Source: Eledone cirrhosa
Lineage: Eukaryota
Direction of reading: 5' to 3'
Length of the DNA: 64,000 nucleotides
Assembly: GCA_964016885.1 (NCBI GenBank)
Contig: OZ024741.1
Location: 411,060,001 to 411,124,000 of the forward strand
The notes under the pieces are model-generated. The model saw nothing but the letters and a program-made list of their open reading frames with translations, had not been told where the DNA came from and searched no databases. The position numbers were made by a program, and so were the translations under genes. Below are positions 20,906 to 63,220 of this stretch, piece by piece. The number at the start of each line of letters is the position of its first letter. Within the stretch, counting starts at the first letter, position 1.

Positions 20906-21014
20906 CGAAGTTGTTGTGCTTTCCAATAGTAATAGAGACTGTAATAATGCATCTTCATGATTTCGTATGTTTGACCAAGTCCATACCAAGCTCGGAAATC
21001 TCGACTATTTACTT
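20906..21014 (-). CDS. CDC23: CDC23/APC8 internal coding exon (109 bp): (E)[35 protein letters not shown](R)
   Basis: Translated by hand. Acceptor tttag, donor gtcagt. Phase 1 start matches the preceding exon. Matches recalled human CDC23 [37 protein letters not shown]. Confidence 0.95.
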
Positions 21015-21828: not shown

Positions 21829-22013
21829 AACTGGTACAGCAAGTCATTGGGGTGCCACTGGTGCAGTCAGTTGTTGGGGTGCCACTCTAGATGTGCCACT
21901 GGTACAGCCAGTCGTTGGGGTGCACACTAGATGTGGTGCCACTGGTACAGCCAGCTGTTGGGGTGCTACTCTAGATGTGTCACTGGTACAGCCAGTATTG
22001 GGGTGCCACTCTA
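21829..22013. repeat. Degenerate ~40-bp minisatellite (cactggtacagccagtcgttggggtgccactctagatgtg), about 4-5 units
   Basis: Recurring cactggtacagccag and ttggggtgccact motifs. Confidence 0.75.
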
Positions 22014-22495: not shown

Positions 22496-22660
22496 CAATA
22501 GCCTGTCGATAGGCCTCAATAGCAGCAGTGATATTTTTCATCTCCATATATTCATGACCTATAAGGGTCCAGGCTGAGAGGTAATGTGGGTTCAGTTTGA
22601 GAGCCCTTTGGAAATATAACAGAGCCTTTTCATGCTGGGATCTGAGGGAATAATAATTGG
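22496..22660 (-). CDS. CDC23: CDC23/APC8 internal coding exon (165 bp): (A)[54 protein letters not shown]
   Basis: Acceptor ttttcag, donor gtgagt, phase 1/1. Closely matches recalled human [54 protein letters not shown] (TPR repeats). Confidence 0.97.
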
Positions 22661-22732
22661 CTGAAAATAGAACAAAAAAGATATTTAAATAACATATTTC
22701 ATGTGAAATTTATTTAACAAGAGATTTCCTGG

Positions 22733-22771
22733 TTAACCCTTTCAGTACTATATTTCTCATGAAAGACTGTC
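22733..22771 (+). repeat. Solitary diverged partial copy of the 49-bp satellite monomer (possible transposon terminus)
   Basis: ttaaccctttcagtactatatttctcatgaaagactgtc versus array ttaaccctttcattaccatatttctaatgaaagacactgtc. Confidence 0.8.
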
Positions 22772-22773
22772 GC

Positions 22774-22970
22774 CATCATCATCACCATTGAAAATCCATT
22801 TTCCATGCTAGCATGGGTTAAACGAGTTGTCCTGTTGTGAGAAATACTAGGTCAGGTGACCATATCTTTCTCATACAGAACTGTTTCTGGCTTAGTTTCT
22901 ACAGCTGGATGCCCTTCCTAGTGCCAACCATATTTAAAGTGTGGACTGGGTGTTTTTTGTCATGACACCT
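22774..22970 (-). mobile_element. SINE-like interspersed repeat copy ((CAT)n tail, ccatgctagcatgg palindrome, ttctacagctggatgcccttcct core) that runs directly into the 48-bp array
   Basis: Colinear with 61661-61920 and with the reverse complement of 60630-60780. SINE classification is inferred from the microsatellite tail and 3' stem-loop. Confidence 0.7.
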
Positions 22971-25900
22971 ACATAACCACTCTACAGTGTAGACTGGGTG
23001 TTTTTTGTCATAACATCTACATGACCACTCTACAGTGTAGACTGGGTGTTTTTTGTCATGACACCTACATGACCACTCTACAGTGTAGACTGGGTGTTTT
23101 TTGTCATGACATCTACATGACCACTCTACAGTGTAGACTGGGTGTTTTTTGTCATGACACCTACATGACCACTCTACAGTGTAGACTGGGTGTTTTTTGT
23201 CATGACATCTACATGACCACTCTACAGTGTAGACTGGGTGTTTTTTGTCATGACATCTACATGACCACTCTACAGTGTAGACTGGGTGTTTTTTGTCATG
23301 ACATCTACATGACCACTCTACAGTGTGGACTGGGTGTTTTTTGTCATGACATCTACATGACCACTCTACAGTGTGGACTGGGTGTTTTTTGTCATGACAT
23401 CTACATGACCACTCTACAGTGTGGACAGGGTGTTTTTTGTCATGACATCTACATGACCACTCTACAGTGTGGACTGGGTGTTTTTTGTCATGACATCTAC
23501 ATGACCACTCTACAGTGTGGACTGGGTGTTTTTTGTCATGACATCTACATGACCACTCTACAGTGTGGACTGGGTGTTTTTTGTCATGACATCTACATGA
23601 CCACTCTACAGTGTGGACTGAGTGTTTTTTGTCATGACATCTACATGACCACTCTACAGTGTGGACTGGGTGTTTTTTGTCATGACATCTACATGACCAC
23701 TCTACAGTGTGGTCAGGGTGTTTTTTGTCATGACATCTACATGACCACTCTACAGTGTGGACTGGGTGTTTTTTGTCATGACATCTACATGACCACTCTA
23801 CAGTGTGGACTGGGTGTTTTTTGTCATGACATCTGCATGACCACTCTACAGTGTGGACTGGGTGTTTTTTGTCATGACACCTACATGACCACTCTACAGT
23901 GTGGACTGGGTGTTTTTTGTCATGACATCTACATGACCACTCTACAGTGTGGACTGGGTGTTTTTTGTCATGACATCTACATGACCACTCTACAGTGTGG
24001 ACTGGGTGTTTCTTGTCATGACATCTACATGACCACTCTACAGTGTGGACTGGGTGTTTTTTGTCATGACATCTACATGACCATTCTACAGTGTGGACTG
24101 GGTGTTTTTTGTCATGACATCTACATGACCACTCTACAGTGTCTGGGTGTTTTTTGTCATGACACCTACATGACCACTCTACAGTGTGGACTGGGTGTTT
24201 TTTGTCATGACATCTACATGACCACTCTACAGTGTGGACTGGGTGTTTTTTGTCATGACATCTACATGACCACTCTACAGTGTGGACTGGGTGTTTTTTG
24301 TCATGACATCTACATGACCACTCTACAGTGTGGAGTGGGTGTTTTTTGTCATGACATCTACATGACCACTCTACAGTGTGGACTGGGTGTTTTTTGTCAT
24401 GACATCTACATGACCACTCTACAGTGTGGACTGGGTGTTTTTTGTCATGACATCTACATGACTACTCTACAGTGTGGACTGGGTGTTTTTTGTCATGACA
24501 TCTACATGACCACTCTACAGTGTGGACTGGGTGTTTTTTGTCATGACATCTACATGACCACTCTACAGTGTGGACTGGGTGTTTTTTGTCATGACATCTA
24601 CATGACCACTCTACAGTGTGGACTGGGTGTTTTTTGTCATGACATCTACATGACTACTCTACAGTGTGGACTGGGTGTTTTTTGTCATGACACCTACATG
24701 ACCACTCTACAGTGTGGACTGGGTGTTTTTTGTCATGACATCTACATGACCACTCTACAGTGTGGACTGGGTGTTTTTTGTCATGACATCTACATGACCA
24801 CTCTACAGTGTGGACTGGGTGTTTTTTGTCATGACATCTACATGACCACTCTACAGTGTGGACTGGGTGTTTTTTGTCATGACATCTACATGACCACTCT
24901 ACAGTGTGGACTGGGTGTTTTTTGTCCTGACATCTACATGACCACTCTACAGTGTGGACTGGGTGTTTTTTGTCATGACATCTACATGACCACTCTACAG
25001 TGTGGACTGGGTGTTTTTTGTCATGACATCTACATGACCACTCTACAGTGTGGACTGGGTGTTTTTTGTCCTGACATCTACATGACCACTCTACAGTGTG
25101 GACTGGGTGTTTTTTGTCCTGACATCTACATGACCACTCTACAGTGTGGACTGGGTGTTTTTTGTCATGACATCTACATGACCACTCTACAGTGTGGACT
25201 GGGTGTTTTTTGTCATGACATCTACATGACCACTCTACAGTGTGGACTGGGTGTTTTTTGTCATGACATCTACATGACCACTCTACAGTGTGGACTGGGT
25301 GTTTTTTGTCATGACATCTACATGACCACTCTACAGTGTGGACTGGGTGTTTTTTGTCATGACACCTACATGACCAATCTACAGTGTGGACTGGGTGTTT
25401 TTTGTCATGACATCTACATGACCACTCTACAGTGTGGACTGGGTGTTTTTTGTCATGACATCTACATGACCAGTCTACAGTGTGGACTGGGTGTTTTTTG
25501 TCATGACATCTACATGACCACTCTACAGTGTGGACTGGGTGTTTTTTGTCATGACATCTACATGACCACTCTACAGTGTGGACTGGGTGTTTTTTGTCAT
25601 GACATCTACATGACCACTCTACAGTGTGGACAGGGTGTTTTTTGTCATGACATCTACATGACCACTCTACAGTGTGGACTGGGTGTTTTCTGTCATGACA
25701 CCTACATGACCACTCTTGTGTGTGGACTGGGTGTTTTTTGTCATGACATCTACATGACCACTCTACAGTGTGGACTGGGTGTTTTTTGTCATGACATCTA
25801 CATGACCACTCTACAGTGTGGACTGGGTGTTTTTTGTCATGACATCTACATGACCACTCTACAGTGTGGACTGGGTTGTTTTTTGTCATAACATCTACAT

Positions 25901-28900
25901 GACCACTCTACAGTGTGGACTGGGTGTTTTTTGTCATGACATCTACATGACCACTCTACAGTGTGGACTGGGTGTTTTTTGTCATGACACCTACATGACC
26001 ACTCTACAGTGTGGACTGGGTGTTTTTTGTCATGACATCTACATGACCACTCTACAGTGTGGACTGAGTGTTTTTTGTCATGACATCTACATGACCACTC
26101 TACAGTGTGGACTGGGTGTTTTTTGTCATGACACCTACATGACCACTCTACAGTGTGGACTGGGTGTTTTTAGTCATGACATCTACATGACCACTCTACA
26201 GTGTGGACTGGGTGTTTTTTGTCATGACATCTACAGGACCACTCTACAGTGTGGACTGGGTGTTTTTTGTCATGACATCTACATGACCACTCTACAGTGT
26301 GGACAGGGTGTTTTTTGTCATGACATCTACATGACCACTCTACAGTGTGGACTGGGTGTTTTTTGTCATGACACCTACATGACCACTCTACAGTGTGGAC
26401 TGGGTGTTTTTTGTCATGACATCTACATGACCACTCTACAGTGTGGACTGGGTGTTTTTTGTCATGACATCTACATGACCACTCTACAGTGTGGACTGGG
26501 TGTTTTTTGTCATGACATCTACATGACCACTCTACAGTGTGGACAGGGTGTTTTTTGTCATGACATCTACATGACCACTCTACAGTGTGGACTGGGTGTT
26601 TTTTGTCATGACATCTACATGACCACTCTACAGTGTGGACTGGGTGTTTTTTGTCATGACATCTACATGACCACTCTACAGTGTGGACTGGGTGTTTTTT
26701 GTCATGACATCTACATGACCACTCTACAGTGTGGACTGGGTGTTTTTTGTCATGACATCTACATGACCACTCTACAGTGTGGACTGAGTGTTTTTTGTCA
26801 TGACATCTACATGACCACTCTACAGTGTGGACTGGGTGTTTTTTGTCATGACACCTACATGACCAATCTACAGTGTGGACTGGGTGTTTTTTGTCATGAC
26901 ATCTACATGACCACTCTACAGTGTAGACTGGGTGTTTTTTGTCATGACATCTACATGACCACTCTACAGTGTGGACTGGCTGTTTTTTGTAATGACATCT
27001 ACATGACCACTCTACAGTGTGGACTGGGTGTTTTTTGTCATGACATCTACATGACCACTCTACAGTGTGGACTGGGTGTTTTTTGTCATGACATCTACAT
27101 GACCACTCTACAGTGTGGACAGGGTGTTTTTTGTCATGACATCTACATGACCACTCTACAGTGTGGACTGGGTGTTTTTTGTCATGACACCTACATGACC
27201 ACTCTTGTGTGTGGACTGGGTGTTTTTTGTCATGACATCTACATGACCACTCTACAGTGTGGACTGGGTGTTTTTTGTCATGACATCTACATGACCACTC
27301 TACAGTGTGGACTGGGTGTTTTTTGTCATGACATCTACATGACCACTCTACAGTGTGGACTGGGTTGTTTTTTGTCATAACATCTACATGACCACTCTAC
27401 AGTGTGGACTGGGTGTTTTTTGTCATGACATCTACATGACCACTCTACAGTGTGGACTGGGTGTTTTTTGTCATGACACCTACATGACCACTCTACAGTG
27501 TGGACTGGGTTGTTTTTTGTCATAACATCTACATGACCACTCTACAGTGTGGACTGGGTGTTTTTTGTCATGACATCTACATGACCACTCTACAGTGTGG
27601 ACTGAGTGTTTTTGGTCATGACATCTACATGACCACTCTACAGTGTGGACTGGGTGTTTTTTGTCATGACACCTACATGACCACTCTACAGTGTGGACTG
27701 GGTGTTTTTTGTCATGACATCTACATGACCACTCTACAGTGTGGACTGGGTGTTTTTTGTCATGACATCTACATGACCACTCTACAGTGTGGACTGGGTG
27801 TTTTTTGTCATGACATCGACATGACCACTCTACAGTGTGGACAGGGTGTTTTTTGTCATGACATCTACATGACCACTCTACAGTGTGGACTGGGTGTTTT
27901 TTGTCATGACACCTACATGACCACTCTACAGTGTGGACTGGGTGTTTTTTGTCATGACATCTACATGACCACTCTACAGTGTGGACTGGGTGTTTTTTGT
28001 CATGACATCTACATGACCACTCTACAGTGTGGACTGGGTGTTTTTTGTCATGACATCTACATGACCACTCTACAGTGTGGACAGGGTGTTTTTTGTCATG
28101 ACATCTACATGACCACTCTACAGTGTGGACTGGGTGTTTTTTGTCATGACATCTACATGACCACTCTACAGTGTGGACTGGGTGTTTTTTGTCATGACAT
28201 CTACATGACCACTCTACAGTGTGGACTGGGTGTTTTTTGTCATGACATCTACATGACCACTCTACAGTGTGGACTGGGTGTTTTTTGTCATGACATCTAC
28301 ATGACCACTCTACAGTGTGGACTGAGTGTTTTTTGTCATGACATCTACATGACCACTCTACAGTGTGGACTGGGTGTTTTTTGTCATGACACCTACATGA
28401 CCAATCTACAGTGTGGACTGGGTGTTTTTTGTCATGACATCTACATGACCACTCTATAGTGTGGACTGGGTGTTTTTTGTCATGACATCTACATGACCAC
28501 TCTACAGTGTGGACTGGGTGTTTTTTGTCATGACACCTACATGACCAATCTACAGTGTGGACTGGGTGTTTTTTGTCATGACATCTACATGACCACTCTA
28601 CAGTGTGGACTGGGTGTTTTTTGTCATGACATCTACATGACCACTCTACAGTGTGGACTGGGTGTTTTTTGTCATGACATCTACATGACCACTCTACAGT
28701 GTGGACTGGGTGTTTTTTGTCATGACATCTACATGACCACTCTACAGTGTGGACAGGGTGTTTTTTGTCATGACATCTACATGACCACTCTACAGTGTGG
28801 ACTGGGTGTTTTTTGTCATGACACCTACATGACCACTCTACAGTGTGGACTGGGTGTTTTTTGTCATGACATCTACATGACCACTCTACAGTGTAGACTG

Positions 28901-31900
28901 GGTGTTTTTTGTCATGACATCTACATGACCACTCTACAGTGTGGACTGGGTGTTTTTTGTCATGACATCTACATGACCACTCTACAGTGTGGACTGGGTG
29001 TTTTTTGTCATGACATCTACATGACCACTCTACAGTGTGGACTGGGTGTTTTTTGTCATGACATCTACATGACCACTCTACAGTGTGGACAGGGTGTTTT
29101 TTGTCATGACATCTACATGACCACTCTACAGTGTGGACTGGGTGTTTTTTGTCATGACACCTACATGACCACTCTTGTGTGTGGACTGGGTGTTTTTTGT
29201 CATGACATCTACATGACCACTCTACAGTGTGGACTGGGTGTTTTTTGTCATGACATCTACATGACCACTCTACAGTGTGGACTGGGTGTTTTTTGTCATG
29301 ACATCTACATGACCACTCTACAGTGTGGACTGGGTTGTTTTTTGTCATAACATCTACATGACCACTCTACAGTGTGGACTGGGTGTTTTTTGTCATGACA
29401 TCTACATGACCACTCTACAGTGTGGACTGAGTGTTTTTTGTCATGACATCTACATGACCACTCTACAGTGTGGACTGGGTGTTTTTTGTCATGACACCTA
29501 CATGACCACTCTACAGTGTGGACTGGGTTGTTTTTTGTCATAACATCTACATGACCACTCTACAGTGTGGACTGGGTGTTTTTTGTCATGACATCTACAT
29601 GACCACTCTACAGTGTGGACTGAGTGTTTTTTGTCATGACATCTACATGACCACTCTACAGTGTGGACTGGGTGTTTTTTGTCATGACACCTACATGACC
29701 ACTCTACAGTGTGGACTGGGTGTTTTTTGTCATGACATCTACATGACCACTCTACAGTGTGGACTGGGTGTTTTTTGTCATGACATCTACATGACCACTC
29801 TACAGTGTGGACTGGGTGTTTTTTGTCATGACATCTACATGACCACTCTACAGTGTGGACAGGGTGTTTTTTGTCATGACATCTACATGACCACTCTACA
29901 GTGTGGACTGGGTGTTTTTTGTCATGACACCTACATGACCACTCTACAGTGTGGACTGGGTGTTTTTTGTCATGACATCTACATGACCACTCTACAGTGT
30001 GGACTGGGTGTTTTTTGTCATGACATCTACATGACCACTCTACAGTGTGGACTGGGTGTTTTTTGTCATGACATCTACATGACCACTCTACAGTGTGGAC
30101 AGGGTGTTTTTTGTCATGACATCTACATGACCACTCTACAGTGTGGACTGGGTGTTTTTTGTCATGACATCTACATGACCACTCTACAGTGTGGACTGGG
30201 TGTTTTTTGTCATGACATCTACATGACCACTCTACAGTGTGGACTGGGTGTTTTTTGTCATGACATCTACATGACCACTCTACAGTGTGGACTGGGTGTT
30301 TTTTGTCATGAAATCTACATGACCACTCTACAGTGTGGACTGAGTGTTTTTTGTCATGACATCTACATGACCACTCTACAGTGTGGACTGGGTGTTTTTT
30401 GTCATGACACCTACATGACCACTCTACAGTGTGGACTGGGTGTTTTTTGTCATGACATCTACATGCCCACTCTACAGTGTGGACTGGGTGTTTTTTGTCA
30501 TGACATCTACATGACCACTCTACAGTGTGGACTGGGTGTTTTTTGTCATGACATCTACATGACCACTCTACAGTGTGGACTGGGTGTTTTTTGTCATGAC
30601 ATCTACATGACCACTCTACAGTGTGGACTGGGTGTTTTTTGTCATGACACCTACATGACCACTCTTGTGTGTGGACTGGGTGTTTTTTGTCATGACATCT
30701 ACATGACCACTCTACAGTGTGGACTGGGTGTTTTTTGTCATGACATCTACATGACCACTCTACAGTGTGGACTGGGTGTTTTTTGTCATGACATCTACAT
30801 GACCACTCTACAGTGTGGACAGGGTGTTTTTTGTCATGACATCTACACGACCACTCTACAGTGTGGACTGGGTGTTTTTTGTCATGACATCTACATGGCC
30901 ACTCTACAGTGTGGACTAGGTGTTTTTTGTCATGACATCTACATGACCACTCTACAGTGTGGACTGGGTGTTTTTTGTCATGACATCTACATGACCACTC
31001 TACAGTGTGGACTGGGTGTTTCTTGTCATGACATCTACATGACCACTCTACAGTGTGGACTGGGTGTTTTTTGTCATGACATCTACATGACCAGTCTACA
31101 GTGTGGACTGGGTGTTTTTTGTCATGACATCTACATGGCCACTCTACAGTGTGGACTAGGTGTTTTTTGTCATGACATCTACATGACCACTCTACAGTGT
31201 GGACTGGGTGTTTTTTGTCATGACATCTACATAACCACTCTACAATGTGGACTGGGTGTTTTTTGTCATGACATCTACATGACCACTCTACAGTGTGGAC
31301 TGGGTGTTTTTTGTCATGACATCTACATGACCACTCTACAGTGTGGACTGGGTGTTTTTTGTCATGACATCTACATAACCACTCTACAATGTGGACTGGG
31401 TGTTTTTTGTCATGACATCTACATGACCACTCTACAGTGTGGACTGGGTGTTTTTTGTCATGACATCTACAGGACCACTCTACAGTGTGGACTGGGTGTT
31501 TTTTGTCATAATACCTACATGACCACTCTACAGTGTGGACTGGGTGTTTTTTGTCATGACATCTACATGACCACTCTACAGTGTGGACTGGGTGTTTTTT
31601 GAAATGACATCTACATGACCACTCTACAGTGTGGACAGGGTGTTTTTTGTCATGACATCTACATGACCACTCTACAGTGTGGACTGGGTGTTTTTTGTCA
31701 TGACATCTACATGACCACTCTACAGTGTGGACTGGGTGTTTTTTGTCATGACATCTACATGACCACTCTACAGTGTGGACTGGGTGTTTTTTGTCATAAC
31801 ATCTACATGACCACTTTACAGTGTGGACTGGGTGATTTTGTCATGACATCTACGTGACCACTCTACAGTATGGACTGGGTGTTTTTTGTCATGACACCTA

Positions 31901-49900: not shown

Positions 49901-52900
49901 ACTCTACAGTGTGGACTGGGTGTTTTTTGTCATGACATCTACATGACCACTCTACAGTGTGGACTGGGTGTTTTTTGTCATGACATCTACATGACCACTC
50001 TACAGTGTGGACTGGGTGTTTTTTGTCATGACACCTACATGACCACTCTACAGTGTGGACTGGGTTGTTTTTTGTCATAACATCTACATGACCACTCTAC
50101 AGTGTGGACTGGGTGTTTTTTGTCATGACATCTACATGACCACTCTACAGTGTGGACTGGGTGTTTTTTGTCATGACATCTACATGACCACTCTACAGTG
50201 TGGACTGGGTGTTTTTTGTCATGACACCTACATGACCACTCTACAGTGTAGACTGGGTGTTTTTTGTCATGACATCTACATGACCACTCTACAGTGTGGA
50301 CTGGGTGTTTTTTGTCATGACATCTACATGACCACTCTACAGTGTGGACTGGGTGTTTTTTGTCATGACGCCTACATGACCACTCTACAGTGTGGACTGG
50401 GTTGTTTTTTGTCATAACATCTACATGACCACTCTACAGTGTGGACTGGGTGTTTTTTGTCATGACATCTACATGACCACTCTACAGTGTGGACTGGGTG
50501 TTTTTTGTCATGACATCTACATGACCACTCTACAGTGTGGACTGGGTGTTTTTTGTCATGACACCCACATGACCACTCTACAGTGTGGACTGGGTGTTTT
50601 TTGTCATGACATCTACATGACCACTCTACAGTGTGGACTGAGTGTTTTTTGTCATGACATCTACATGACCACTCTACAGTGTGGACTGGGTTGTTTTTTG
50701 TCATAACATCTACATGACCACTCTACAGTGTGGACTGGGTGTTTTTTGTCATGACATCTACATGACCACTCTACAGTGTGGACTGGGTGTTTTTTGTCAT
50801 GACATCTACATGACCACTCTACAGTGTGGACTGGGTGTTTTTTGTCATGACATCTACATGACCACTCTACAGTGTGGACTGGGTGTTTTTTGTCATGACA
50901 TCTACATGACCACTCTACAGTGTGGACTGGGTGTTTTTTGTCATGACATCTACATGACCACTCTACAGTGTGGACTGGGTGTTTTTTGTCATGACACCTA
51001 CGTGACCACTCTACAGTGTGGACAGGGTGTTTTTTATCATGACATCTACATGACCACTCTACAGTGTGGACTGGGTGTTTTTTGTCATGACATCTACATG
51101 ACCACTCTACAGTGTGGACTGGGTGTTTTTTGTCATGACATCTACATGACCACTCTACAGTGTGGACTGGGTGTTTTTTGTCATGACATCTACATGACCA
51201 CTCTACAGTGTGGACTGTGTGTTTTTTGTCATGACACCTACATGACCACTCTACAGTGTGGACTGGGTGTTTTTTGTCATGACATCTACATGACCACTCT
51301 ACAGTGTGGACTGGGTGTTTTTTGTCATGACATCTACATGACCACTCTACAGTGTGGACTGGGTGTTTTTTGTCATGACACCTACATGACCACTCTACAG
51401 TGTGGACTGGGTGTTTTTTGTCATGACACCTACATGACCACTCTACAGTGTGGACTGGGTGTTTTTTGTCATGACATCTACATGACCACTCTACAGTGTA
51501 GACTGGGTGTTTTTTGTCATGACATCTACATGACCACTCTACAGTGTGGACTGGGTGTTTTTTGTCATGACATCTACATGACCACTCTACAGTGTGGACT
51601 GGGTGTTTTTTGTCATGACATCTACATGACCACTCTACAGTGTGGACAGGGTGTTTTTTGTCATGACATCTACATGACCACTCTACAGTGTGGACTGGGT
51701 GTTTTTTGTCATGACATCTACATGACCACTCTACAGTGTGGACAGGGTGTTTTTTGTCATGACATCTACATGACCACTCTACAGTGTGGACTGGGTGTTT
51801 TTTGTCATGACATCTACATGACCACTCTACAGTGTAGACTGGGTGTTTTTTGTCATGACATCTACATGACCACTCTACAGTGTGGACTGGGTGTTTTTTG
51901 TCATGACATCTACATGACCACTCTACAGTGTGGACTGGGTGTTTTTTGTCATGACATCTACATGACCACTCTACAGTGTGAACAGGGTGTTTTTTGTCAT
52001 GACATCTACATGACCACTCTACAGTGTGGACTGGGTGTTTTTTGTCATGACATCTACATGACCACTCTACAGTGTGGACAGGGTGTTTTTTGTCATGACA
52101 TCTACATGACCACTCTACAGTGTGGACTGGGTGTTTTTTGTCATGACATCTACATGACCACTCTACAGTGTGGACTGGGTTTTTTTGTCATGACATCTAC
52201 ATGACCACTCTACAGTGTGGACTGGGTGTTTTTTGTCATGACATCTACATGACCACTCTACAGTGTGGACAGGGTGTTTTTTGTCATGACATCTACATGA
52301 CCACTCTACAGTGTGGACTGGGTGTTTTTTGTCATGACATCTACATGACCACTCTACAGTGTGGACAGGGTGTTTTTTGTCATGACATCTACATGACCAC
52401 TCTACAGTGTGGACTGGGTGTTTTTTGTCATGACATCTACATGACCACTCTACAGTGTGGACTGGGTGTTTTTTGTCATGACATCTACATGACCACTCTA
52501 CAGTGTGGACTGGGTGTTTTTTGTCATGACATCTACATGACCACTCTACAGTGTGGACTGGGTGTTTTTTGTCATGACATCTACATGACCACTCTACAGT
52601 GTGGACTGTGTGTTTTTTGTCATGACACCTACATGACCACTCTACAGTGTGGACTGGGTGTTTTTTGTCATGACATCTACATGACCACTCTACAGTGTGG
52701 ACTGGGTGTTTTTTGTCATGACATCTACATGACCACTCTACAGTGTGGACTGGGTGTTTTTTGTCATGACATCTACATGACCACTCTACAGTGTGGACTG
52801 GGTGTTTTTTGTCATGACATCTACATGACCACTCTACAGTGTGGACTGGGTGTTTTTTGTCATGACATCTACATGACCACTCTACAGTGTGGACTGGGTG

Positions 52901-55900
52901 TTTTTTGTCATGACACCTACATGACCACTCTACAGTGTGGACTGGGTGTTTTTTGTCATGACACCTACATGACCACTCTACAGTGTGGACTGGGTGTTTT
53001 TTGTCATGACATCTACATGACCACTCTACAGTGTGGACTGGGTGTTTTTTGTCATGACATCTACATGACCACTCTACAGTGTGGACTGGGTGTTTTTTGT
53101 CATGACATCTACATGACCACTCTACAGTGTGGACTGAGTGTTTTTTGTCATGACATCTACATGACCACTCTACAGTGTGGACTGGGTTTTTTTGTCATGA
53201 CATCTACATGACCACTCTACAGTGTGGACTGGGTGTTTTTTGTCATGACATCTACATGACCACTCTACAGTGTGGACAGGGTGTTTTTTGTCATGACATC
53301 TACATGACCACTCTACAGTGTGGACTGGGTGTTTTTTGTCATGACACCCACATGACCACTCTACAGTGTGGACTGGGTGTTTTTTGTCATGACATCTACA
53401 TGACCACTCTACAGTGTGGACTGAGTGTTTTTTGTCATGACATCTACATGACCACTCTACAGTGTGGACTGGGTGTTTTTTGTCATGACATCTACATGAC
53501 CACTCTACAGTGTGGACTGGGTGTTTTTTGTCATGACACCTACATGACCACTCTACAGTGTGGACTGGGTGTTTTTTGTCATGACACCTACATGACCACT
53601 CTTGTGTGTAGACTGGGTGTTTTTTGTCATGACATCTACATGACCACTCTACAGTGTGGACTGAGTGTTTTTTGTCATGACATCTACATGACCACTCTAC
53701 AGTGTGGACTGGGTGTTTTTTGTCATAACATCTACATGACCACTCTACAGTGTGGACTGGGTGTTTTTTGTCATGACATCTACATGACCACTCTACAGTG
53801 TGGACTGAGTGTTTTTTGTCATGACATCTACATGACCACTCTACAGTGTGGACTGGGTGTTTTTTGTCATGACATCTACATGACCACTCTACAGTGTGGA
53901 CTGGGTGTTTTTTGTCATGACATCTACATCACCACTCTACAGTGTGGACTGGGTGTTTTTTGTCATGACATCTACATGACCACTCTACAGTGTGGACTGG
54001 GTGTTTTTTGTCATGACATCTACATGACCACTCTACAGTGTGGACTGGGTGTTTTTTGTCATGACATCTACATGACCACTCTACAGTGTGGACTGGGTGT
54101 TTTTTGTCATGACATCTACATGACCACTCTACAGTGTGGACTGGGTGTTTTTTGTCATGACATCTACATGACCACTCTACAGTGTGGACTGGGTGTTTTT
54201 TGTCATGACATCTACATGACCACTCTACAGTGTGGACTGGGTGTTTTTTGTCATGACATCTACATGACCACTCTACAGTATGGACTGGGTGTTTTTTTGT
54301 CATGACATCTACATGACCACTCTACAGTGTGGACTGGGTGTTTTTTGTCATGACATCTACATGACCACTCTACAGTGTGGACAGGGTGTTTTTTGTCATG
54401 ACATCTACATGACCACTCTACAGTGTGGACAGGGTGTTTTTTGTCATGACATCTACATGACCACTCTACAGTGTGGACTGGGTGTTTTTTGTCATGACAT
54501 CTACATGACCACTCTACAGTGTGGACTGGGTGTTTTTTGTCATGACACCTACATGACCACTCTACAGTGTGGACTGGGTGTTTTTTGTCATGACATCTAC
54601 ATGACCACTCTACAGTGTGGACTGGGTGTTTTTTGTCATGACATCTACATGACCACTCTACAGTGTGGACTGGGTTGTTTTTTGTCATAACATCTACATG
54701 ACCACTCTACAGTGTGGACTGGGTGTTTTTTTGTCATGACATCTACATGACCACTCTACAGTGTGGACTGGGTGTTTTTTGTCATGACATCTACATGACC
54801 ACTCTTGTGTGTGGACTGGGTGTTTTTTGTCATGACATCTACATGACCACTCTACAGTGTGGACTGGGTGTTTTTTGTCATGACATCTACATGACCACTC
54901 TACAGTGTGGACTGGGTGTTTTTTGTCATGACATCTACATGACCACTCTACAGTGTGGACTGGGTGTTTTTTGTCATGACATCTACATGACCACTCTACA
55001 GTGTGGACTGGGTGTTTTTTGTCATGACACCTACATGACCACTCTACAGTGTGGACTGGGTTGTTTTTTGTCATAACATCTACATGACCACTCTACAGTG
55101 TGGACTGGGTGTTTTTTTGTCATGACATCTACATGACCACTCTACAGTGTGGACTGGGTGTTTTTTGTCATGACATCTACATGACCACTCTTGTGTGTGG
55201 ACTGGGTGTTTTTTGTCATGACATCTACATGACCACTCTACAGTGTGGACTGGGTGTTTTTTGTCATGACATCTACATGACCACTCTACAGTGTGGACTG
55301 GGTGTTTTTTGTCATGACATCTACATGACCACTCTACAGTGTGGACTGGGTGTTTTTTGTCATGACACCTACATGACCACTCTACAGTGTGGACTGGGTT
55401 GTTTTTTGTCATAACATCTACATGACCACTCTACAGTGTGGACTGGGTGTTTTTTGTCATGACATCTACATGACCACTCTACAGTGTGGACTGGGTGTTT
55501 TTTGTCATGACATCTACATGACCACTCTACAGTGTGGACTGGGTGTTTTTTGTCATGACATCTACATGACCACTCTACAGTATGGACTGGGTGTTTTTTT
55601 GTCATGACATCTACATGACCACTCTACAGTGTGGACTGGGTGTTTTTTGTCATGACATCTACATGACCACTCTACAGTGTGGACAGGGTGTTTTTTGTCA
55701 TGACATCTACATGACCACTCTACAGTGTGGACAGGGTGTTTTTTGTCATGACATCTACATGACCACTCTACAGTGTGGACTGGGTGTTTTTTGTCATGAC
55801 ATCTACATGACCACTCTACAGTGTGGACTGGGTGTTTTTTGTCATGACATCTACATGACCACTCTACAGTGTGGACTGGGTGTTTTTTGTCATGACATCT

Positions 55901-57081
55901 ACATGACCACTCTACAGTGTGGACTGGGTGTTTTTTGTCATGACACCTACATGACCACTCTACAGTGTGGACTGGGTTGTTTTTTGTCATAACATCTACA
56001 TGACCACTCTACAGTGTGGACTGGGTGTTTTTTGTCATGACATCTACATGACCACTCTACAGTGTGGACTGGGTGTTTTTTGTCATGACATCTACATGAC
56101 CACTCTACAGTGTGGACTGGGTGTTTTTTGTCATGACACCTACATGACCACTCTACAGTGTAGACTGGGTGTTTTTTGTCATGACATCTACATGACCACT
56201 CTACAGTGTGGACTGGGTGTTTTTTGTCATGACATCTACATGACCACTCTACAGTGTGGACTGGGTGTTTTTTGTCATGACACCTACATGACCACTCTAC
56301 AGTGTGGACTGGGTTGTTTTTTGTCATAACATCTACATGACCACTCTACAGTGTGGACTGGGTGTTTTTTGTCATGACATCTACATGACCACTCTACAGT
56401 GTGGACTGGGTGTTTTTTGTCATGACATCTACATGACCACTCTACAGTGTGGACTGGGTGTTTTTTGTCATGACACCCACATGACCACTCTACAGTGTGG
56501 ACTGGGTGTTTTTTGTCATGACATCTACATGACCACTCTACAGTGTGGACTGAGAGTTTTTTGTCATGACATCTACATCACCACTCTACAGTGTGGACTG
56601 GGTGTTTTTTGTCATGACATCTACATGACCACTCTACAGTGTGGACTGGGTGTTTTTTGTCATGACATCTACATGACCACTCTACAGTGTGGACTGGGTG
56701 TTTTTTGTCATGACATCTACATGACCACTCTACAGTGTGGACTGGGTGTTTTTTGTCATGACATCTACATGACCACTCTACAGTGTGGACTGGGTGTTTT
56801 TTGTCATGACACCTACATGACCACTCTACAGTGTGGACTGGGTGTTTTTTGTCATGACACCTACATGACCACTCTACAGTGTAGACTGGGTGTTTTTTGT
56901 CATGACATCTACATGACCACTCTACAGTGTGGACTGGGTGTTTTTTGTCATGAAACCTACATGACCACTCTACAGTGTGGACTGGGTGTTTTTTGTCAAG
57001 ACACCTACATGACCACTCTACAGTGTGGACTGGGTGTTTTTTGTCAAGACACCTAGGCGACCACTTTATGGTGTGGGTTGG
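22927..57081. repeat. 48-bp satellite array (~710 copies, ~34.1 kb) filling a single CDC23 intron (22661-57347)
   Basis: Consensus atgaccactctacagtgtggactgggtgttttttgtcatgacatctac with period 48, highly homogeneous, with diverged units at both edges. Confidence 0.98.
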
Positions 57082-57119
57082 GGACAAGAAGTATGACATT
57101 ATACTGGAGAGTAGCTCTC

Positions 57120-57158
57120 TAACCCATGAATACATGGAACAGTAGACGATGATGATGA
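57120..57158 (+). mobile_element. 3' tail fragment of the same SINE-like element (taacccatgaatacatggaacagtagacgatgatgatg)
   Basis: Aligns with the reverse complement of 22774-22820 (taacccatgctagcatggaaaatgga...gatgatgatg). Confidence 0.6.
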
Positions 57159-57328
57159 CAATGATAATGATGATGGTGGTGATGATAACGATGGTGGTGG
57201 TGATAATGAAGATGATGGTGATGGTGGTGATAATGAAGATGATGGTGGTGGTGGTGGTGGTGGTGATAATGAAGATGGTGGTGGTGGTGGTGATAATGAA
57301 GATGGTGGTGGTGGTGATAATGAAGATG
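57148..57328. repeat. Compound (GAT/GGT)n microsatellite with a gataatgaagatggtggtg sub-unit
   Basis: Read directly. Confidence 0.9.
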
Positions 57329-57347
57329 TATATTTATATAAACTCAC

Positions 57348-57429
57348 CAATAACACAACAAGTTTCAACCCGATATTTATCAATTTCACAGACACTGTGG
57401 GCTAAATAAGCTAACTCCACACGGTTTTC
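57348..57429 (-). CDS. CDC23: CDC23/APC8 internal coding exon (82 bp): ENRVELAYLAHSVCEIDKYRVETCCVI
   Basis: Acceptor tttgcag, donor gtgagt, phase 0/1. Matches recalled human SMKSELSYLAHNLCEIDKYRVETCCVI. Not shown in the ORF track. Confidence 0.96.
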
Positions 57430-57482
57430 CTGCAAATAACCGCAACAACACATATTTAGCGAAAATTATGACACATTTGAAA

Positions 57483-58153
57483 AACAAAGAATTGTTAGAT
57501 TAGATTATAACAAAGGATTGTTAGGTTAGATTATAACAAAGAATTGTTAGGTTAGATTATAACAAAGGATTGTTAGATTAGATTATAACAAAGAATTGTT
57601 AGGTTAGATTATAACAAAGGATTGTTAGGTTAGATTATAACAAAGAATTGTTAGGTTAGATTATAACAAAGGATTGTTAGGTTAGATTATAACAAAGAAT
57701 TGTTAGGTTAGATTATAGCAAAGAATTGTTAGGTTAGATTATAACAAAGAATTGTTAGGTTAGATTATAACAAAGGATTGTTAGATTAGATTATAACAAA
57801 GAATTGTTAGGTTAGATTATAACAAAGAATTGTTAGGTTAGATTATAACAAAGGATTGTTAGATTAGATTATAACAAAGGATTGTTAGGTTAGATTATAA
57901 CAAAGAATTGTCAGGTTAGATTATAACAAAGGATTGTTAGATTAGATTATAACAAAGGATTGTTAGATTAGATTATAACAAAGGATTGTTAGGTTAGATT
58001 ATAACAAAGAATTGTTAGGTTAGATTATAACAAAGAATTGTTAGGTTAGATTATAACAAAGAATTGTTAGGTTAGATTATAACAAAGAATTGTTAGGTTA
58101 GATTATAACAAAGAATTGTTAGGTTAGATTATAACAAAGAATTGTTAGATTAT
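57483..58153. repeat. 26-bp minisatellite aacaaag(a/g)attgttag(g/a)ttagattat, ~26 copies
   Basis: Read directly, period 26. Confidence 0.95.
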
Positions 58154-58799
58154 ATGGAAGCTGTCAAGTTACACCAGTGACTCGGGGGTCAGGAATTTGG
58201 TGATTAATGCATTTTTCAAACAGTTTCAAAAACCAGTTTGTAAACTACTATATATACTTGAATATAAGCACCCACTGCCTCTTTTATGTCTGAGAAATGG
58301 GCAAAAATCCAAACCACATTTATAAGCCAAGGCAGCTAATCAACATATTGTTTAGATGGTGTATATAATTTGACCCCACCCCCCTCCACCTCATTTTACC
58401 ATCAATTTTTTGGGTTCACATATTCCTCAGCTTATAGTATATAATGTAAGCACAGAACTCCTGGTCTTCAAATCACCAATATAACGCTAATATCGCTGTT
58501 ATAATAAATTATATTCAGTTTAGTTTCTCCTGTTTGTACAACCAAACATAGATAATCAGAAGAAAATCTTAAACATATAAAGAAGTAATTCTTCATACAC
58601 ATTCTTTAGGCCTGTAATTATTTTAAAGTTTTAAAATATTGTCACAAAGCTTTCAAAAACTGTCTTGAAACTCTATTCAATGATCAGTGTTTACTTTTCT
58701 TAATTGTATCAAGCTCTAGCTTTTCTTTATGGTAAACTTTACAATGGAGGAAAGAAATGAGATTTTGGTCTTGTCAGCGATTTGATAAACCCTCGGATG

Positions 58800-58932
58800 T
58801 TGATGTCATGATAAAATACACCCAGTACACTCTGTAAAGTGGTAGTGTTGGTGTCATGATAAAATACACCCAGTACACTCTGTAAAGTGGTAGTGCTGGT
58901 GTCATGATATAATACACCTAGTACACTCTGTA
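58800..58932 (-). repeat. Mini-array (~2.7 units, period 48) homologous to the 48-bp satellite, in inverted orientation
   Basis: Units start at 58805, 58853 and 58901. gtcatgataaaatacacccagtacactctgtaaagtggtagtgttggt matches the reverse complement of the satellite consensus at 39/48 positions without gaps. Confidence 0.9.
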
Positions 58933-59586
58933 CTTATTGTAAACCAGATACACAGGGATACAGTGTACCTATTGTAAACCAGATATACACAGGGATACAG
59001 TGTAGCTATTGTAAACCTGATATACACAGGGATACAGTGTACCTATTGTAAACCAGATACACACTGGGATACAGTGTACCTATTGTAAACCAGATATACA
59101 CAGGGATACAGTGTACCTATTGTAAACCAGATATACACAGGGATACAGTGTACCTATTGTAAACCAGATATACACAGGGGTACAGTGTACCTATTGTAAA
59201 CCAGATATACACAGGGATACAGTGTACCTATTGTAAACCAGATATACACAGGGATACAGTGTACCTATTGTAAACCAGATATACACAGGGATACAGTGTA
59301 CCTATTGTAAACCAGATACACACTGGGATACAGTGTACCTATTGTAAACCAGATATACACAGGGATACAGTGTACCTATTGTAAACCAGATATACACAGG
59401 GATACAGTGTACCTATTGTAAACCAGATACACACTGGGATACAGTGTACCTATTGTAAACCTGATATACACAGGGATACAGTGTACCTATTGAAAACCAG
59501 ATATACACAGGGATACAGTGTATCTATTGTAAACCAGATATACACAGGGATACAGTGTACCTATTGTAAACCAGATACACACTGAG
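58929..59586. repeat. 37-bp minisatellite attgtaaaccagatatacacagggatacagtgtacct, ~18 copies
   Basis: Read directly, period 37 (for example 58971 to 59008). Confidence 0.95.
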
Positions 59587-59637
59587 ATATTTATAGTTAA
59601 GAAAAGACTAATAAATATATCAATATACAAGACTTAC

Positions 59638-59735
59638 TTTAACAAAAAGTATATTTGAGAAGATGTCCATATTTTCTAGACGGTATGGATCTTTCTCTCG
59701 CAGTTTCATAAAAACTTCAACAGCCTGGTCAAAAC
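59638..59735 (-). CDS. CDC23: CDC23/APC8 internal coding exon (98 bp): (S)FDQAVEVFMKLREKDPYRLENMDIFSNILFVK
   Basis: Acceptor ttctccag, donor gtaagt, phase 1/0. Matches recalled human DIDKALSIFNELRKQDPYRIENMDTFSNLLYVR. Confidence 0.96.
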
Positions 59736-59785
59736 CTGGAGAAAATAAAAAAATAAAATCTAAATTTAGACTAATCTTGATTTTA

Positions 59786-60210
59786 CATATATATATATAC
59801 AATGTCTACATATAACTATATATATACACAACACTCCATATATATATACAATGTCTACATATAACTATATATATACACAACACTCTACATATATATATAT
59901 ATACAATGTCTATATATAACTATATATATACACAACACTCTACATATATATATATATACAATGTCTACATATAACTATATATATACACAACACTCCATAT
60001 ATATATACAATGTCTACATATAACTATATATATACACAACACTCTACATATATATATATATATACAATGTCTATATATAACTATATATATACACAACACT
60101 CTACATATATATATATATATACAATGTCTACATATAACTATATATATACACAACACTCCATATATATATACAATGTCTACATATAACTATATATATACAC
60201 AACACTCTAC

Positions 60211-60242
<32 letters not shown>

Positions 60243-60460
60243 TCTATATATAACTATATATACACAACACTCCATACATACAATGTCTTTATACAACTAT
60301 ATATATACACAACACTCCATATATATATATATATATATATAATGTCTATATACAACTATATATATACACAACACTCCACATATATATATATAATGTCTAT
60401 ATATTACTATATACAACACTCCACATATACAATGTCTATATATATTATACATACATCAAT
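59786..60460. repeat. (TA)n-containing minisatellite with ~50-bp variable units (caatgtctacatataac(ta)ncacaacactc)
   Basis: Read directly. Unit length varies with the TA tract. Confidence 0.9.
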
Positions 60461-60629
60461 ATTTTCATAGATTTTTTAACAAATTTTCTATAAATAAAAA
60501 CATTTCATAGTGTGTGCATGTGTGTATATATGAGAGTGTGTTTGTATATACATATATATCAGTTTACTCAGCTGTAGAAATGAGATGATAGGGACTGGGG
60601 TCCCTCTCATTCCACTGCAAAGTGGTCGT

Positions 60630-60780
60630 GGAGGTGCCACGGAATAAAAGCACCCAGCACTCACTGTAAATGAGGTTAGTGTTAAGAAGGGCATCCAGCT
60701 GTAGAAATCAAGCCAGAATCAGTTCCCGTCCCACCCTTGCAAGCAGGGAAAAGCGGACGTAAATTGATGATGATGATGAT
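60630..60780 (+). mobile_element. SINE-like repeat copy with a single 48-mer-homologous module and a (GAT)n tail
   Basis: ggtgccacggaataaaagcacccagcac...ctgtaaatgaggttagtgttaagaagggcatccagctgtagaaa...gcaagcagggaaaagcggacgtaaattgatgatgatgatgat. Confidence 0.7.
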
Positions 60781-60842
60781 CAGTGTATTGAAAACATGAG
60801 AAAAAAGTACTTAATACTAAAGTAGAGTTTTAATATACAATA

Positions 60843-60908
60843 TTATTACGGCTAAGTAGTCAGTCTTGTTACTCTGGAGTAACAAGATTCACTATTTAGC
60901 CTTAATAA
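60843..60908. other. Long imperfect inverted repeat (32-bp arms, 2-nt spacer)
   Basis: Arms 60843-60874 and 60877-60908 pair at 28/32 Watson-Crick positions plus 2 G-T, counted by hand. Confidence 0.85.
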
Positions 60909-61660
60909 AATGAATATATATATATATATATATTTATTTAGATTTGTTGGTTCACCACTGGATAGAACTGGTCATTCCGTATGGTCAATCTCGATGTAAT
61001 ATTATGGAGAGCACTCAACGTAGTGCAGTTCACCCATCTTCGTTTGTGTAGTTGGTGGTGCGAGTACGGAGTTAATTATTATAAAATAACAGGAGGCTGT
61101 ACTGGTGTAAATCCTTGAAAGGTTTATTATACTATAATCATTTCAATGACCGGGTTCAGTATGAATCTGGTGACATCATCAGGTATTCAAAATATAACAA
61201 AGGAATATAACAGATAAAATCCATGGGGCTGAAAATTTGAGACAAGAGGACGACCGACTATTTAGCAGCTTCTACCTCAGTCAGCCGCCCTCGAGTGCTG
61301 ATTATCAAGTTGATTACACGTACATACATATATGTATACAGACGTACAGTAGTATGTATATATATATATACATACATGCACATACATTCCATTTATCGTT
61401 TTCGGTGCGCCCGGCCGATTAACTCACTCGATATGCAAATTAGGCTGCTCAGCCGTTAATATGCATAAGGAAAGTATATACTTTCAGACGTTCAATCATC
61501 TGGCAGGAAGGTATACAGTGCTGACGATAGCTAATAAGCTTGAAACTAGTACATCGTTCCTTTGTCAGTGTTGAACAAAAGAGCAATGATGGTTGCCGAA
61601 CACTGTACGGCTTAATTCGGGATGTTTGTTTACAAACAAACCGAGCATTATAATAATCCT

Positions 61661-61925
61661 CATCATCATCGTTTAACGTTCATCTTCCACGCTTGCATGG
61701 GTTTGGACGGGGGTTTTCCCACTTGAGGCAAGAGTGGTTGTCTTGCTCGCATAGGACTGTCTGGTGGGTTTTCTACAGTTGGATGCCCTTCCTAACACCA
61801 ACCACATTTACAGTGTGGGACTGGGAGGTTTTTACCGTGTTACCTACACGGCCACATTACAGCGTGGACTGTGTGTATTTTTGTTGTGACACCTACACGA
61901 CCTCATTTGTTTTGGACTAGATGTT
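61661..61925 (-). mobile_element. SINE-like repeat copy followed by ~2.5 diverged units of the 48-mer module
   Basis: catcatcatcgtttaacgttc...ttctacagttggatgcccttcctaacaccaaccacatttacagtgtgggactggg...cctacacggccacattacagcgtggactgtgtgtatttttgttgtgacacctacacgacc. The ORF-track translation also echoes the array (DCVYFCCDTYTT). Confidence 0.75.
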
Positions 61926-62334
61926 GTGGTACCAACATAACTTCACATTGAAGGGGGCGGTGTGGATGGGGTGGGGTAGTGGGACGGATGTTCGGTAAAC
62001 CCATACGTACATATATGTGTGCATGTATGTATATATATATACATACTACTGTACGTCTGTATACATATATGTATGTACGTATACATACTTATATATATCT
62101 GAAATTATATTTATATATATATACACACATAGACAATCATGCCTGCTGTTTAACCAACATTAGTACAACTCAAGTCTCAATCAAACGGAGTTTCACTTGT
62201 GCACTTGCAGGAAGAAGGGTTAAACAGGATATCCTTTAAAATGGGTGGTTTTGTCTCATAGAACCAGAGCTGGTTCTGGCCAGGCTGGTATTAAGAGGGG
62301 GTTAAAATGTGAAAGTTATAGTTGAAGAACCTAC

Positions 62335-62640: not shown

Positions 62641-62818
62641 TAGCAGTAGTAGTAGTGGTGGTGGTGGTGGTAGTAGTAGTAGAAGTAGTAGTAGTGGTAG
62701 TAGTAGAAGTGGTGGTGGTAGTAGTACTAGAAGTAGTAATAGTAGTGGTGGTAGGTAGTAGTAGTGGTGGTGGTGGTAGTAGTAGTAGTAGTAGAAGTAG
62801 TAGTAGTGGTAGTAGTAC

Positions 62819-62858
<40 letters not shown>

Positions 62859-62939
62859 GGTGGTAGTAGTAGTAGAAGTAGTAGTAGGGGCAGTAGTAGT
62901 AGAAGTAGTAGTAGTGGTAGGTAGTAGTAGTGGTGGTAG

Positions 62940-62980
<41 letters not shown>

Positions 62981-62988
62981 GGTGGTAG

Positions 62989-63019
<31 letters not shown>

Positions 63020-63098
63020 GTAGTAGTAGTGGTAGAAGTGGCGGTGGTAGTAGTAGTAGTAGTGGTGGTGGTGGTAGTATTAGTAGTGGCGGTGGTAG

Positions 63099-63138
<40 letters not shown>

Positions 63139-63152
63139 AAGTGGTAGTAGTG

Positions 63153-63184
<32 letters not shown>

Positions 63185-63186
63185 AG

Positions 63187-63220
<34 letters not shown>

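Follow-up and report, generated by a model that had tools for sequence, protein, structure and literature searches.

A 34-kb intronic satellite array, probably grown in place from a LINE 3'-UTR module

The 34-kb satellite array that occupies an intron of CDC23 probably grew where it lies, by slippage and unequal exchange acting on a 48-bp module in the 3' untranslated region (UTR) of a LINE, and arrays of this module elsewhere have likely also moved to new sites as DNA. The question of whether satellites originate by in-place growth from repeats inside transposons or by movement of arrays that already exist has usually been debated on the strength of one or a few end products. In the present case the ancestral state is known and flanks are available at many module loci, which makes both routes measurable with many replicates.

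Results

The window, i.e. the whole 64,000-nt stretch of Eledone cirrhosa DNA that was analysed, contains the following features.

1–20694, no strand: unrelated 49-bp array, 29.3 kb including 8.6 kb left of the window
20894–21009 (approximate ends), minus: CDC23 exon, TPR repeat
22496–22661, minus: CDC23 (APC8) exon on the downstream side of the array-bearing intron, matching human CDC23 at E=1.5e-26
22774–22937, minus: 3' end of a 5'-truncated copy of the old LINE family A (RTE-type by architecture), with TGA-repeat tail and distal 3' UTR
22938–57076, minus: ~710 tandem copies of the 48-bp 3'-UTR module, the majority unit private and divergence within the array 1%
57056–57082, minus: terminal partial unit, ancestral states kept, element truncated at this point
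57348–57429, minus: CDC23 exon on the upstream side of the array-bearing intron, contiguous with 22496–22661 in a contig
58797–58932, plus: 2.8-copy 48-periodic mini-array, fragment of dispersed satellite S2 (a different variant of the module), element flank on neither side
59638–59735, minus: CDC23 exon, next upstream, a loose end in the contig comparison
60560–60781, plus: 5'-truncated copy of SINE family C, one module at ~60625–60672
61660–61985, minus: 5'-truncated copy of the young LINE family B, 97–98% to other copies

The window array and its gene

The original prediction of a ~710-copy, 48-bp array starting seamlessly inside an interspersed repeat stands on both counts. TRF delimits the array at 22938–57076 (period 48, 710.1 copies, 97% matches, ~34 kb), and the 207-bp junction with the repeat has 40 other scored genomic matches at 86–90%. 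Of 463 exact matches in the genome to a 44-nt stretch of the window unit, 461 fall within the window, and the best match outside reaches 93%, as against 97–100% inside (the outside arrays in this last comparison, like those of satellites S1 and S2 below, were picked by similarity to a query). None of 652 window units, and none of 328 units of an array on chromosome C1, is identical to a unit of the other arrays compared. On account of these private units we reject a single pre-existing satellite as the source of the window and C1 arrays, an explanation that we accept for the mini-array at 58797–58932.

The commonest unit makes up 383 of the 629 units of 48 bp, and mean divergence within the array is 1.0%, whereas the LINE flank, with 14 of 157 positions unlike the family majority, lies 9% from it. 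Two of the array's changes already appear in the unit next to the host junction, and the unit at the far end retains ancestral states. Because the array's junction sequence cannot be obtained simply by combining the two end units of the host, growth in place requires that this host had three modules or more. No LINE sequence was detected past the last partial unit, and by eye no target-site duplication was seen at the LINE copy, whose 5' side abuts another tail fragment.

The array also contains an internal block duplication of ~5.9 kb (46.0–49.8 kb, again at 52.0–55.8 kb), with stretches of 35 and 38 units that are identical at a lag of 123–124, where 36 variants are shared against at most 24 in 20 shuffles. 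A near-identical block occurring twice might mean that assembly error has inflated the array. We regard this as most improbable, because the 74 distinct unit types stand in ordered patterns and the exons on either side of the array follow one another, correctly ordered, in CDC23. Moreover, the suspect portion is at most one block, or 17% of the array.

The array lies within an intron, and chromosome C2 ends 5 Mb away. Exons 57348–57429 and 22496–22661 are directly adjacent in one 1852-nt contig from another sample, and on the basis of this exon-joining contig, from a run of unrecorded kind, the array-bearing intron is spliced out. Contigs from two other organisms were short and did not reach across this intron. 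Intronic satellites, which had been expected genome-wide, are thus demonstrated for CDC23, and module arrays also occur elsewhere in the genome. The next CDC23 intron is filled by the unrelated 49-bp array; with such an array alongside, giant size is not specific to the module. Our analysis indicated no function for the arrays, which are most likely functionless passengers removed by splicing.

Other module loci in the window

The smaller loci had been read, together with the large array, as successive stages (1, ~2.5 and ~710 copies) in the expansion of one element. Modules are indeed present at 60630–60780 and 61800–61920, but they belong to SINE family C and LINE family B, respectively, not to the same element. 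The family B 3' UTR is ~385 bp long, with RT and PHD domains directly beyond it (the RT as PF00078, in L019 and L011). The window copy carries two full modules, mutually diverged and fixed (~61804–61901), plus a short remnant, the whole spanning ~61804–61915. The two-module state recurs in 30 of 30 family B copies (9 of 11 in an unbiased sample), and being fixed it rules out the copy-number series. Likewise, one module is normal for SINE C (21 of 22 copies), and the mini-array is a flank-less piece of S2. This mini-array, noted earlier as separate, 48-periodic and 81% identical, is confirmed at 58797–58932, its majority unit differing from that of the big array at 9 of 48 positions. The window's module loci therefore comprise three related families, the old LINE A, the young LINE B and SINE C, and a satellite fragment.

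SINE C is ~340 bp long when complete, and the module of the window copy is oriented opposite to the window array. Of 53 copies, 47 possess the central domain, and in the majority line drawn from these, motifs resembling A and B boxes can be made out by eye; the apparent tRNA-like head is in copies other than the window's. A strict B-box pattern matched 1 of the 53 copies, none of the 53 has ORF matches, and ARAGORN found no tRNA in four SINE-C-bearing loci.

A further 37-bp array (58929–59589) was considered as a module derivative and rejected, its score of 19 comparing with 16.3 ± 5.0 for shuffled sequence and 128 of 500 shuffles scoring as high.

The host LINE and its module

The RT-ORF end is colinear in family A copies (e.g., L055, L056, L058, L062, L063, L072, L074, L075 and L080), and TGA-repeat tails with variable 5' ends are found across 59 family A and B loci. 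The closest database homologues are single endonuclease-RT-PHD proteins of ~1040–1100 aa, 47–55% identical; a single ORF of ~1100 aa with AP endonuclease and RT is seen in these homologues only, no full-length family A or B copy having been recovered. Judged by this architecture and by C-terminal ORF motifs that we take to be RTE-like, rather than by an RT tree with named references, the host is classed as an RTE-type LINE. Neither a pearl/DTC84-type host, the kind previously cited as a molluscan parallel, nor a Helitron-type carrier fits an RT-encoding non-LTR retrotransposon with a TGA tail.

Among 29 family A copies, one module is present in 5, two in 6, three in 6, four in 3 and five to eight in 7, with single copies holding ~35 and 339. 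A divergent 5'-most unit is fixed in position across copies. Arrays joined to tails have ~35, 339, 710 and 2,600+ units. In the C1 array (16.3 kb), the tail lies at one end, and at the other are UTR and the divergent 5' unit that is fixed in the family. With this range and arrays genome-wide, the module is, as anticipated, prone to repeated tandemization with the same period. What sets the period is not a short microhomology at the module ends, as had been suggested, but a ~25–30-bp direct repeat of the module's own end already present in the UTR.

The module may be an H-type RNA pseudoknot, a prediction assessed on 36 hand-picked related rows, in which 85.9% of cells are paired (30–59% in slid controls). 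Covariation in the same 36 hand-picked rows is weak: 5 of 11 pairs show two-sided changes, with a score of 0.230 against 0.191 shuffled (4 of 500). Stem 2 is broken in family B. Rfam covariance models, including HDV-like and hammerhead ribozymes, gave no match at the three module loci in 58700–62100 at E up to 5, and on this basis we reject a known structured RNA as the module's identity; 36 matches away from the module loci were all below gathering score.

An alternative is that all copy-number variation arises at the RNA level, with RT slipping at the pseudoknot or long-array masters retrotransposing. Short arrays of 5–8 units are about as diverged inside (0.08–0.21) as between loci (about 0.14–0.24), which places their origin at or before insertion rather than in subsequent growth. 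The position-fixed 5' unit points the same way, as does a family B subfamily with a common 112-bp UTR duplication (3 of 30 copies). However, this route cannot make arrays of 16, 34 and 128+ kb with internal 5.9-kb duplications and inversions, and it leaves the tail-less arrays, the variants shared across unlike hosts and the C25–C27 clustering described below unexplained. We therefore consider it very improbable as a general account, although it may well apply to the 2–8-copy class alone.

Dispersed satellites

Arrays outside the window include three satellite types, S1, S2 and S3. With an S1 query, 30 of 34 loci listed are on chromosomes C25–C27, which hold 2.5% of the genome (hand count, 150 of 154 rows), as against 1 of 40 family A junction matches. 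The S2 query has three other arrays within 0.85 Mb, and S3 is typified by an array of at least 128 kb on C28 that joins a tail via a short shared stretch; in all three cases the loci were chosen by similarity, and CpG decay of the family unit produces S1- and S3-like units convergently. The hosts of S1 arrays belong to different subfamilies and include a SINE C tail. Sixteen of 20 S1 arrays segregate for the same non-CpG variant, among them arrays with tails, arrays without, and arrays in unlike hosts. Junction microhomology was seen by eye at L208 (5 bp) and L251, with no control count alongside. That most monomers might lack the flanking element, or that multi-copy loci might be fragments of one older satellite, is true in part: among long arrays whose ends are visible, the tail is absent from 8 of 19 for S1 and from 13 of 19 for S2, and the mini-array is an S2 fragment. 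Tail-less arrays, private variants across unlike hosts and chromosome clustering together suggest that arrays likely also spread to new sites as DNA.

If so, the window array could itself be an immigrant, an S3-type piece that was copied into the LINE's module through ectopic gene conversion or the reinsertion of a circle and was afterwards homogenized and enlarged. Its majority unit differs from S3 at 3 of 48 positions, a minor window unit equals 12 of the ~940 units of the C28 array and 1 of 23 units of L252, and both the S1 arrays in unlike hosts and the short stretch at which the C28 array meets its tail offer precedents. Yet S3 is the family A unit with two CpG decays, a change open to any old copy. 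The array's ends, with its changes already in the first unit at the junction and ancestral states in the last, also speak against arrival from outside, as do the nearest outside arrays, which are on other chromosomes and no more than 93% identical while S1 and S2 cluster locally. We thus think immigration unlikely, and growth of the LINE's own module in place the probable origin of the window array.

Frequency in the genome

In place of a genome-wide histogram per insertion, 98 systematic 10-kb stretches (0.98 Mb) were sampled; they over-represent small chromosomes and come from outside C16, C27, C28 and the unplaced contigs. The sample contains 80 module loci, extrapolating to roughly 245,000, and 8 arrays of five or more units, extrapolating to roughly 10,000–50,000; the module profile gave no match on the reversed sample. 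Six of 43 complex minisatellites are module-derived, with dispersed modules taking up 0.66% of non-tandem DNA, whereas none of the 43 matches the adjacent tail, though the tail has 86 matches. The module is a real expansion hotspot, with the caveat that its ~20-fold enrichment counts non-independent arrays.

Discussion

In the course of events that we propose, the period was fixed at 48 within the element, as the UTR module with its direct repeat and the 1–8 modules of family A copies show. A few copies would then have expanded long after insertion by block duplication, a mechanism suggested by the pattern of private, homogeneous arrays such as the 34-kb window array and the 16-kb C1 array. 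Some arrays may subsequently have left the element and spread locally as the S1, S2 and S3 satellites, inserting into homologous modules within unrelated hosts or at sites with short homology. Final size follows a genome-wide tendency, seen in many other units, to form giant minisatellites.

A broader reading, quite possible but short of probable, is that an RNA pseudoknot module, kept in the tails of RTE LINEs and SINEs, works as a permanent satellite factory. Some quarter of a million dispersed copies would both seed in-place growth and serve as landing pads for escaped arrays, with at least three lineages clustered by chromosome and ~1% of the genome as the outcome. The factory would run in a genome that itself builds private 10–100-kb minisatellites in ordinary introns, and locus-by-locus runaway tandem growth would thereby account for much of the size of genome and introns.

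The birth of satellites from transposable elements is already known, and the system described here is a variant with thousands of replicate loci, not a new kind. A literature search that covered few subscription papers yielded no description of the module or of octopod satellites of this kind. In the account of Lathyrus sativus satellites (Vondrak et al., PMC7004042), short arrays within retrotransposons occasionally expand to long ones, much as 27 of 29 elements here have 1–8 modules and rare long arrays stay joined to the element. Those hosts are described as LTR elements, with expansion mainly at primary constrictions, unlike the non-LTR 3' UTR, the intron of a spliced gene and the tail-less arrays found here. 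The DTC84/pearl MITEs of bivalves (Satovic and Plohl, PMC3879986), described as non-coding with inverted repeats and up to five repeats, resemble our elements in being molluscan, with variable internal core repeats, position-fixed variants and a palindrome per unit; they differ from our host, which encodes RT and ends in a TGA tail, and from arrays whose units number hundreds to thousands. For Rsp-like and 1.688 satellites of Drosophila (Sproul et al., PMC7403614), intrachromosomal spread, insertion into related clusters and growth by unequal exchange are reported, all of which have proposed likenesses here, except that the landing sites here would be the LINE and SINE modules from which the satellite itself came.

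Monomers from the 3' part of a LINE are also known, the review PMC9659126 naming the common cetacean satellite (L1), chicken HinfI (CR1) and the HeT-A 3' region. These are presented as single established satellites, whereas here states from one copy to 2,600+ copies are found side by side across very many loci. In Octopus vulgaris, RTE-2_OV (Petrosino et al., PMC9115989) is, like our host as judged from its homologues, of the single-ORF RTE LINE type (1109 aa) with endonuclease, RT and zinc finger. Its 3' UTR is described as mostly microsatellite, with a tandem module unmentioned in that description, so it is probably another family. SINE family C resembles the bipartite RTE-derived SINEs and Ceph-SINEs of Kojima (PMC5786205) in having a central domain and, behind an apparent tRNA-like head, a body and tail of RTE type, an account that, in the parts concerned, does not treat octopus families. 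Kojima describes a conserved domain of the RTE 5' UTR, and the body that family C shares lies in the LINE's 3' UTR; going by these descriptions, the two may differ.

Finally, runaway growth is not confined to the module. CDC23, a conserved cell-cycle gene, tolerates private intronic arrays of 34 and 29 kb, and other minisatellites wholly fill 11 of the 98 sampled stretches, which again argues that giant size is not module-specific. Tandem growth is suggested to be a large part of genome size here, tandem repeats with a period of 10 or more making up 22% of the sampled bases.

Results

At 22938–57076 of the window, an array of 710 copies with a period of 48 bp begins within an interspersed repeat, as the original prediction had described. 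Its copies fall into 74 unit types, with a mean divergence of 1.0% from the commonest unit. The genome measures 3.0 Gb, with repeats of apparently octopod type. The hosting repeat represents the 3′ UTR of a LINE, whose 48-bp unit is here called the module and whose TGA-repeat 3′ end is called the tail. The features around the array are:

~20894–21009, minus strand: CDC23/APC8 exon
57483–58152, 58929–59589, 59787–60413, 21830–22013, 62641–63998: smaller arrays with units of 26, 37, ~49–59 and 41 bp and a 1.4-kb TAG/TGG run, in this order
22496–22661, minus strand: CDC23/APC8 exon (22497–22661 matches human CDC23, E=1.5e-26)
57348–57429, minus strand: CDC23/APC8 exon
58797–58932: 2.8-copy mini-array of related modules
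59638–59735, minus strand: CDC23/APC8 exon
~60625–60672: single related module
~61804–61901: two related modules and a remnant

The 34.7-kb CDC23 intron bearing the array is spliced out, since another sample of this organism has a contig of 1852 nt in which the exons on either side are joined without differences. A second CDC23 intron carries an unrelated array of 49-bp units, 29.3 kb long (window 1–20694 plus L087:1397–10000), which is likely another transposon-seeded giant array within this gene. A dispersed element present in high copy number has an end that matches the 49-bp unit; a copy of this element at 22733–22772 directly adjoins the LINE tail, and others lie at L208 and L182. The far end of the 48-bp array is abutted, at 57100–57328, by a LINE/SINE-like tail of ~60 bp in opposite orientation, whose TGA end has expanded to a GAT/GGT microsatellite of 180 bp; organism C has a GAT run at the equivalent position.

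Three element families are involved. The copy at 61660–61985 belongs to family B, a LINE with 39 other full-length matches at 97–98% among the matches listed, many of which extend into an ORF that encodes RT and PHD domains. Database relatives of this ORF are single endonuclease-RT-PHD proteins of 1040–1100 aa, an architecture that suggests an RTE label for this family and for family A. The latter, an older sister with matches at 86–90%, is the array's host, and several copies show a colinear ORF end as in family B. Family C, represented at 60560–60781, is a non-coding SINE of ~340 bp with a putative tRNA-like head. In the LINE ORF at L019:1889–3211 (minus strand), the RT domain is followed by a PHD finger, a feature common to many database relatives. 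In a family B subfamily (L002, L007, L011 and six more among the matches listed), ~112 bp of the 3′ UTR are tandemly duplicated, with identical breakpoints.

The three module loci near the array had been proposed as stages of satellite seeding, a reading that the family-wide counts contradict. Two modules are fixed in family B (30/30 loci matched by a query that itself held about 1.4 modules, and 9/11 copies in an unbiased sample), and one is the norm in family C (21/22, unbiased sample). Nor is the mini-array at 58797–58932 a stage of the same element: no element flank was detected there (scores of 15 and 17 versus 19 and 18 for controls), and it belongs to S2, a dispersed module-derived satellite type with arrays of ~1 kb or longer at many loci.

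The main rival to growth of the window array in place is invasion by an existing satellite; the window unit differs at 3/48 positions from that of another module-derived type, S3, on chromosome C28. The unit is nevertheless private to its locus: 461 of its 463 exact matches lie within the window, the best match outside the array reaches 93%, and 0/652 window units equal any unit of the other arrays compared. Growth in place would also suit the age contrast, in that homogenization is much younger than the LINE insertion, because the flank of the host diverges by 9% from the family (14/157 positions) whereas the array is 1% from itself. A 5.9-kb block is duplicated inside the array. A 16.3-kb array on chromosome C1 is likewise private (0/328 units common to the others compared), with LINE sequence in order on either side. 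Short arrays of 5–8 units date from the insertion or from source elements, since their internal divergence is mostly as high as that between loci.

The module is a tandem-expansion hotspot. Among 29 family A copies, found by a search that may favour multi-copy loci, module number was 1 (5 copies), 2 (6), 3 (6), 4 (3), 5–8 (7), ~35 (1) and 339 (1). Even a single module is followed by a ~25–30-bp repeat of its own start, which sets the period at 48 bp. A systematic sample of 98 stretches of 10 kb (0.98 Mb) contained 80 module loci, 67 with the tail, amounting to 9,290 module bases (0.95%); eight arrays had at least 4.5 units, four of them with the tail. There, the module makes up 0.66% of non-tandem DNA and gave rise to 6/43 complex minisatellites; 0/43 match the adjacent tail. 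An array on C28 (101.385–101.514 Mb, L239–L251) filled 13/13 sampled stretches across 128 kb and is thus at least that long, its far end lying beyond them; it is 9–11% diverged, with internal inversions and one end in a LINE tail. Further arrays of the same type occur at C28:95–100.5 Mb.

Some module satellites have probably also spread as DNA. A query from a C26 array had 34 loci among its listed matches, 30 of them on chromosomes C25–C27 (hand count); family A junction matches are scattered genome-wide, with 1/40 on these chromosomes. Among the arrays of this type, S1, in which the tail end was visible (n=19), 11 had a tail and eight had none. The 11 tails come from visibly different subfamilies, SINE C included, and outer flanks differ except in one local pair. 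A two-base non-CpG variant is present in 16/20 S1 arrays; of 157 other loci scanned, just two carried it, one of the S1 arrays and one 4-unit array. Tail traces were seen in 6/19 S2 arrays, a count from which older tails may be missing. Although selection of S1/S2 arrays by similarity and convergent CpG decay weaken the argument from identity, they leave the clustering and the shared variant unaffected. The pattern fits ectopic conversion or circle reinsertion, the routes proposed for Drosophila Rsp-like satellites (PMC7403614). A large inverted junction lies at L229 (C28:136.21 Mb), where two S2 arrays of opposite orientation adjoin.

Discussion

Satellites from LINE 3′ UTRs are already known (PMC9659126). 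In its mode of operation the module system resembles both the satellites that arose from retroelements in Lathyrus (PMC7004042) and the DTC84 core repeats (PMC3879986), yet it is not a DTC84 member. No mention of such a module was found in the main-text passages covered of the O. vulgaris repeat annotation (PMC13282606) and the RTE-2_OV paper (PMC9115989), nor a description in the literature searched; the supplements of these two papers and of PMC5786205 may be relevant here. The main value of the system is that it is highly replicated, and hence suited to testing satellite birth and spread.

The sense strand of the module can fold into two crossing stems, of 6 and 5 bp, with a linker rich in A. 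Predicted pairing holds in 85.9% of cells across 34 distinct dispersed copies, with two-sided changes in 5/11 pairs; the score was reached by 4/500 shuffles, but the rows were chosen by hand from related copies, and family B does not preserve stem 2. No Rfam family matched the module. We regard an RNA pseudoknot as a lead rather than a result; if true, it could explain module retention in LINE and SINE tails, as well as slippage of reverse transcriptase or replication at the module.

Growth to giant size is not confined to the module. Tandem repeats occupy 29% of bases in the 98 stretches (22% at periods of 10 or more), and in 11/98 a single array fills nearly the whole stretch, the units measuring 25–101 bp and none deriving from the module; among eight giant arrays compared, only two were related. 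Giant, largely locus-specific minisatellites may thus make up about a tenth of the genome. Within 80 kb on either side of the window (L098–L090, L093–L100), we observed a 61-bp-unit array of over 40 kb, an interrupted 22-bp-unit array of about 45 kb, and short arrays, met repeatedly, with a 72-bp unit. The introns near the window array are crowded with smaller arrays, with units of 26, 37, ~49–59 (AT-rich) and 41 bp; the 37-bp unit has no detectable relation to the module.
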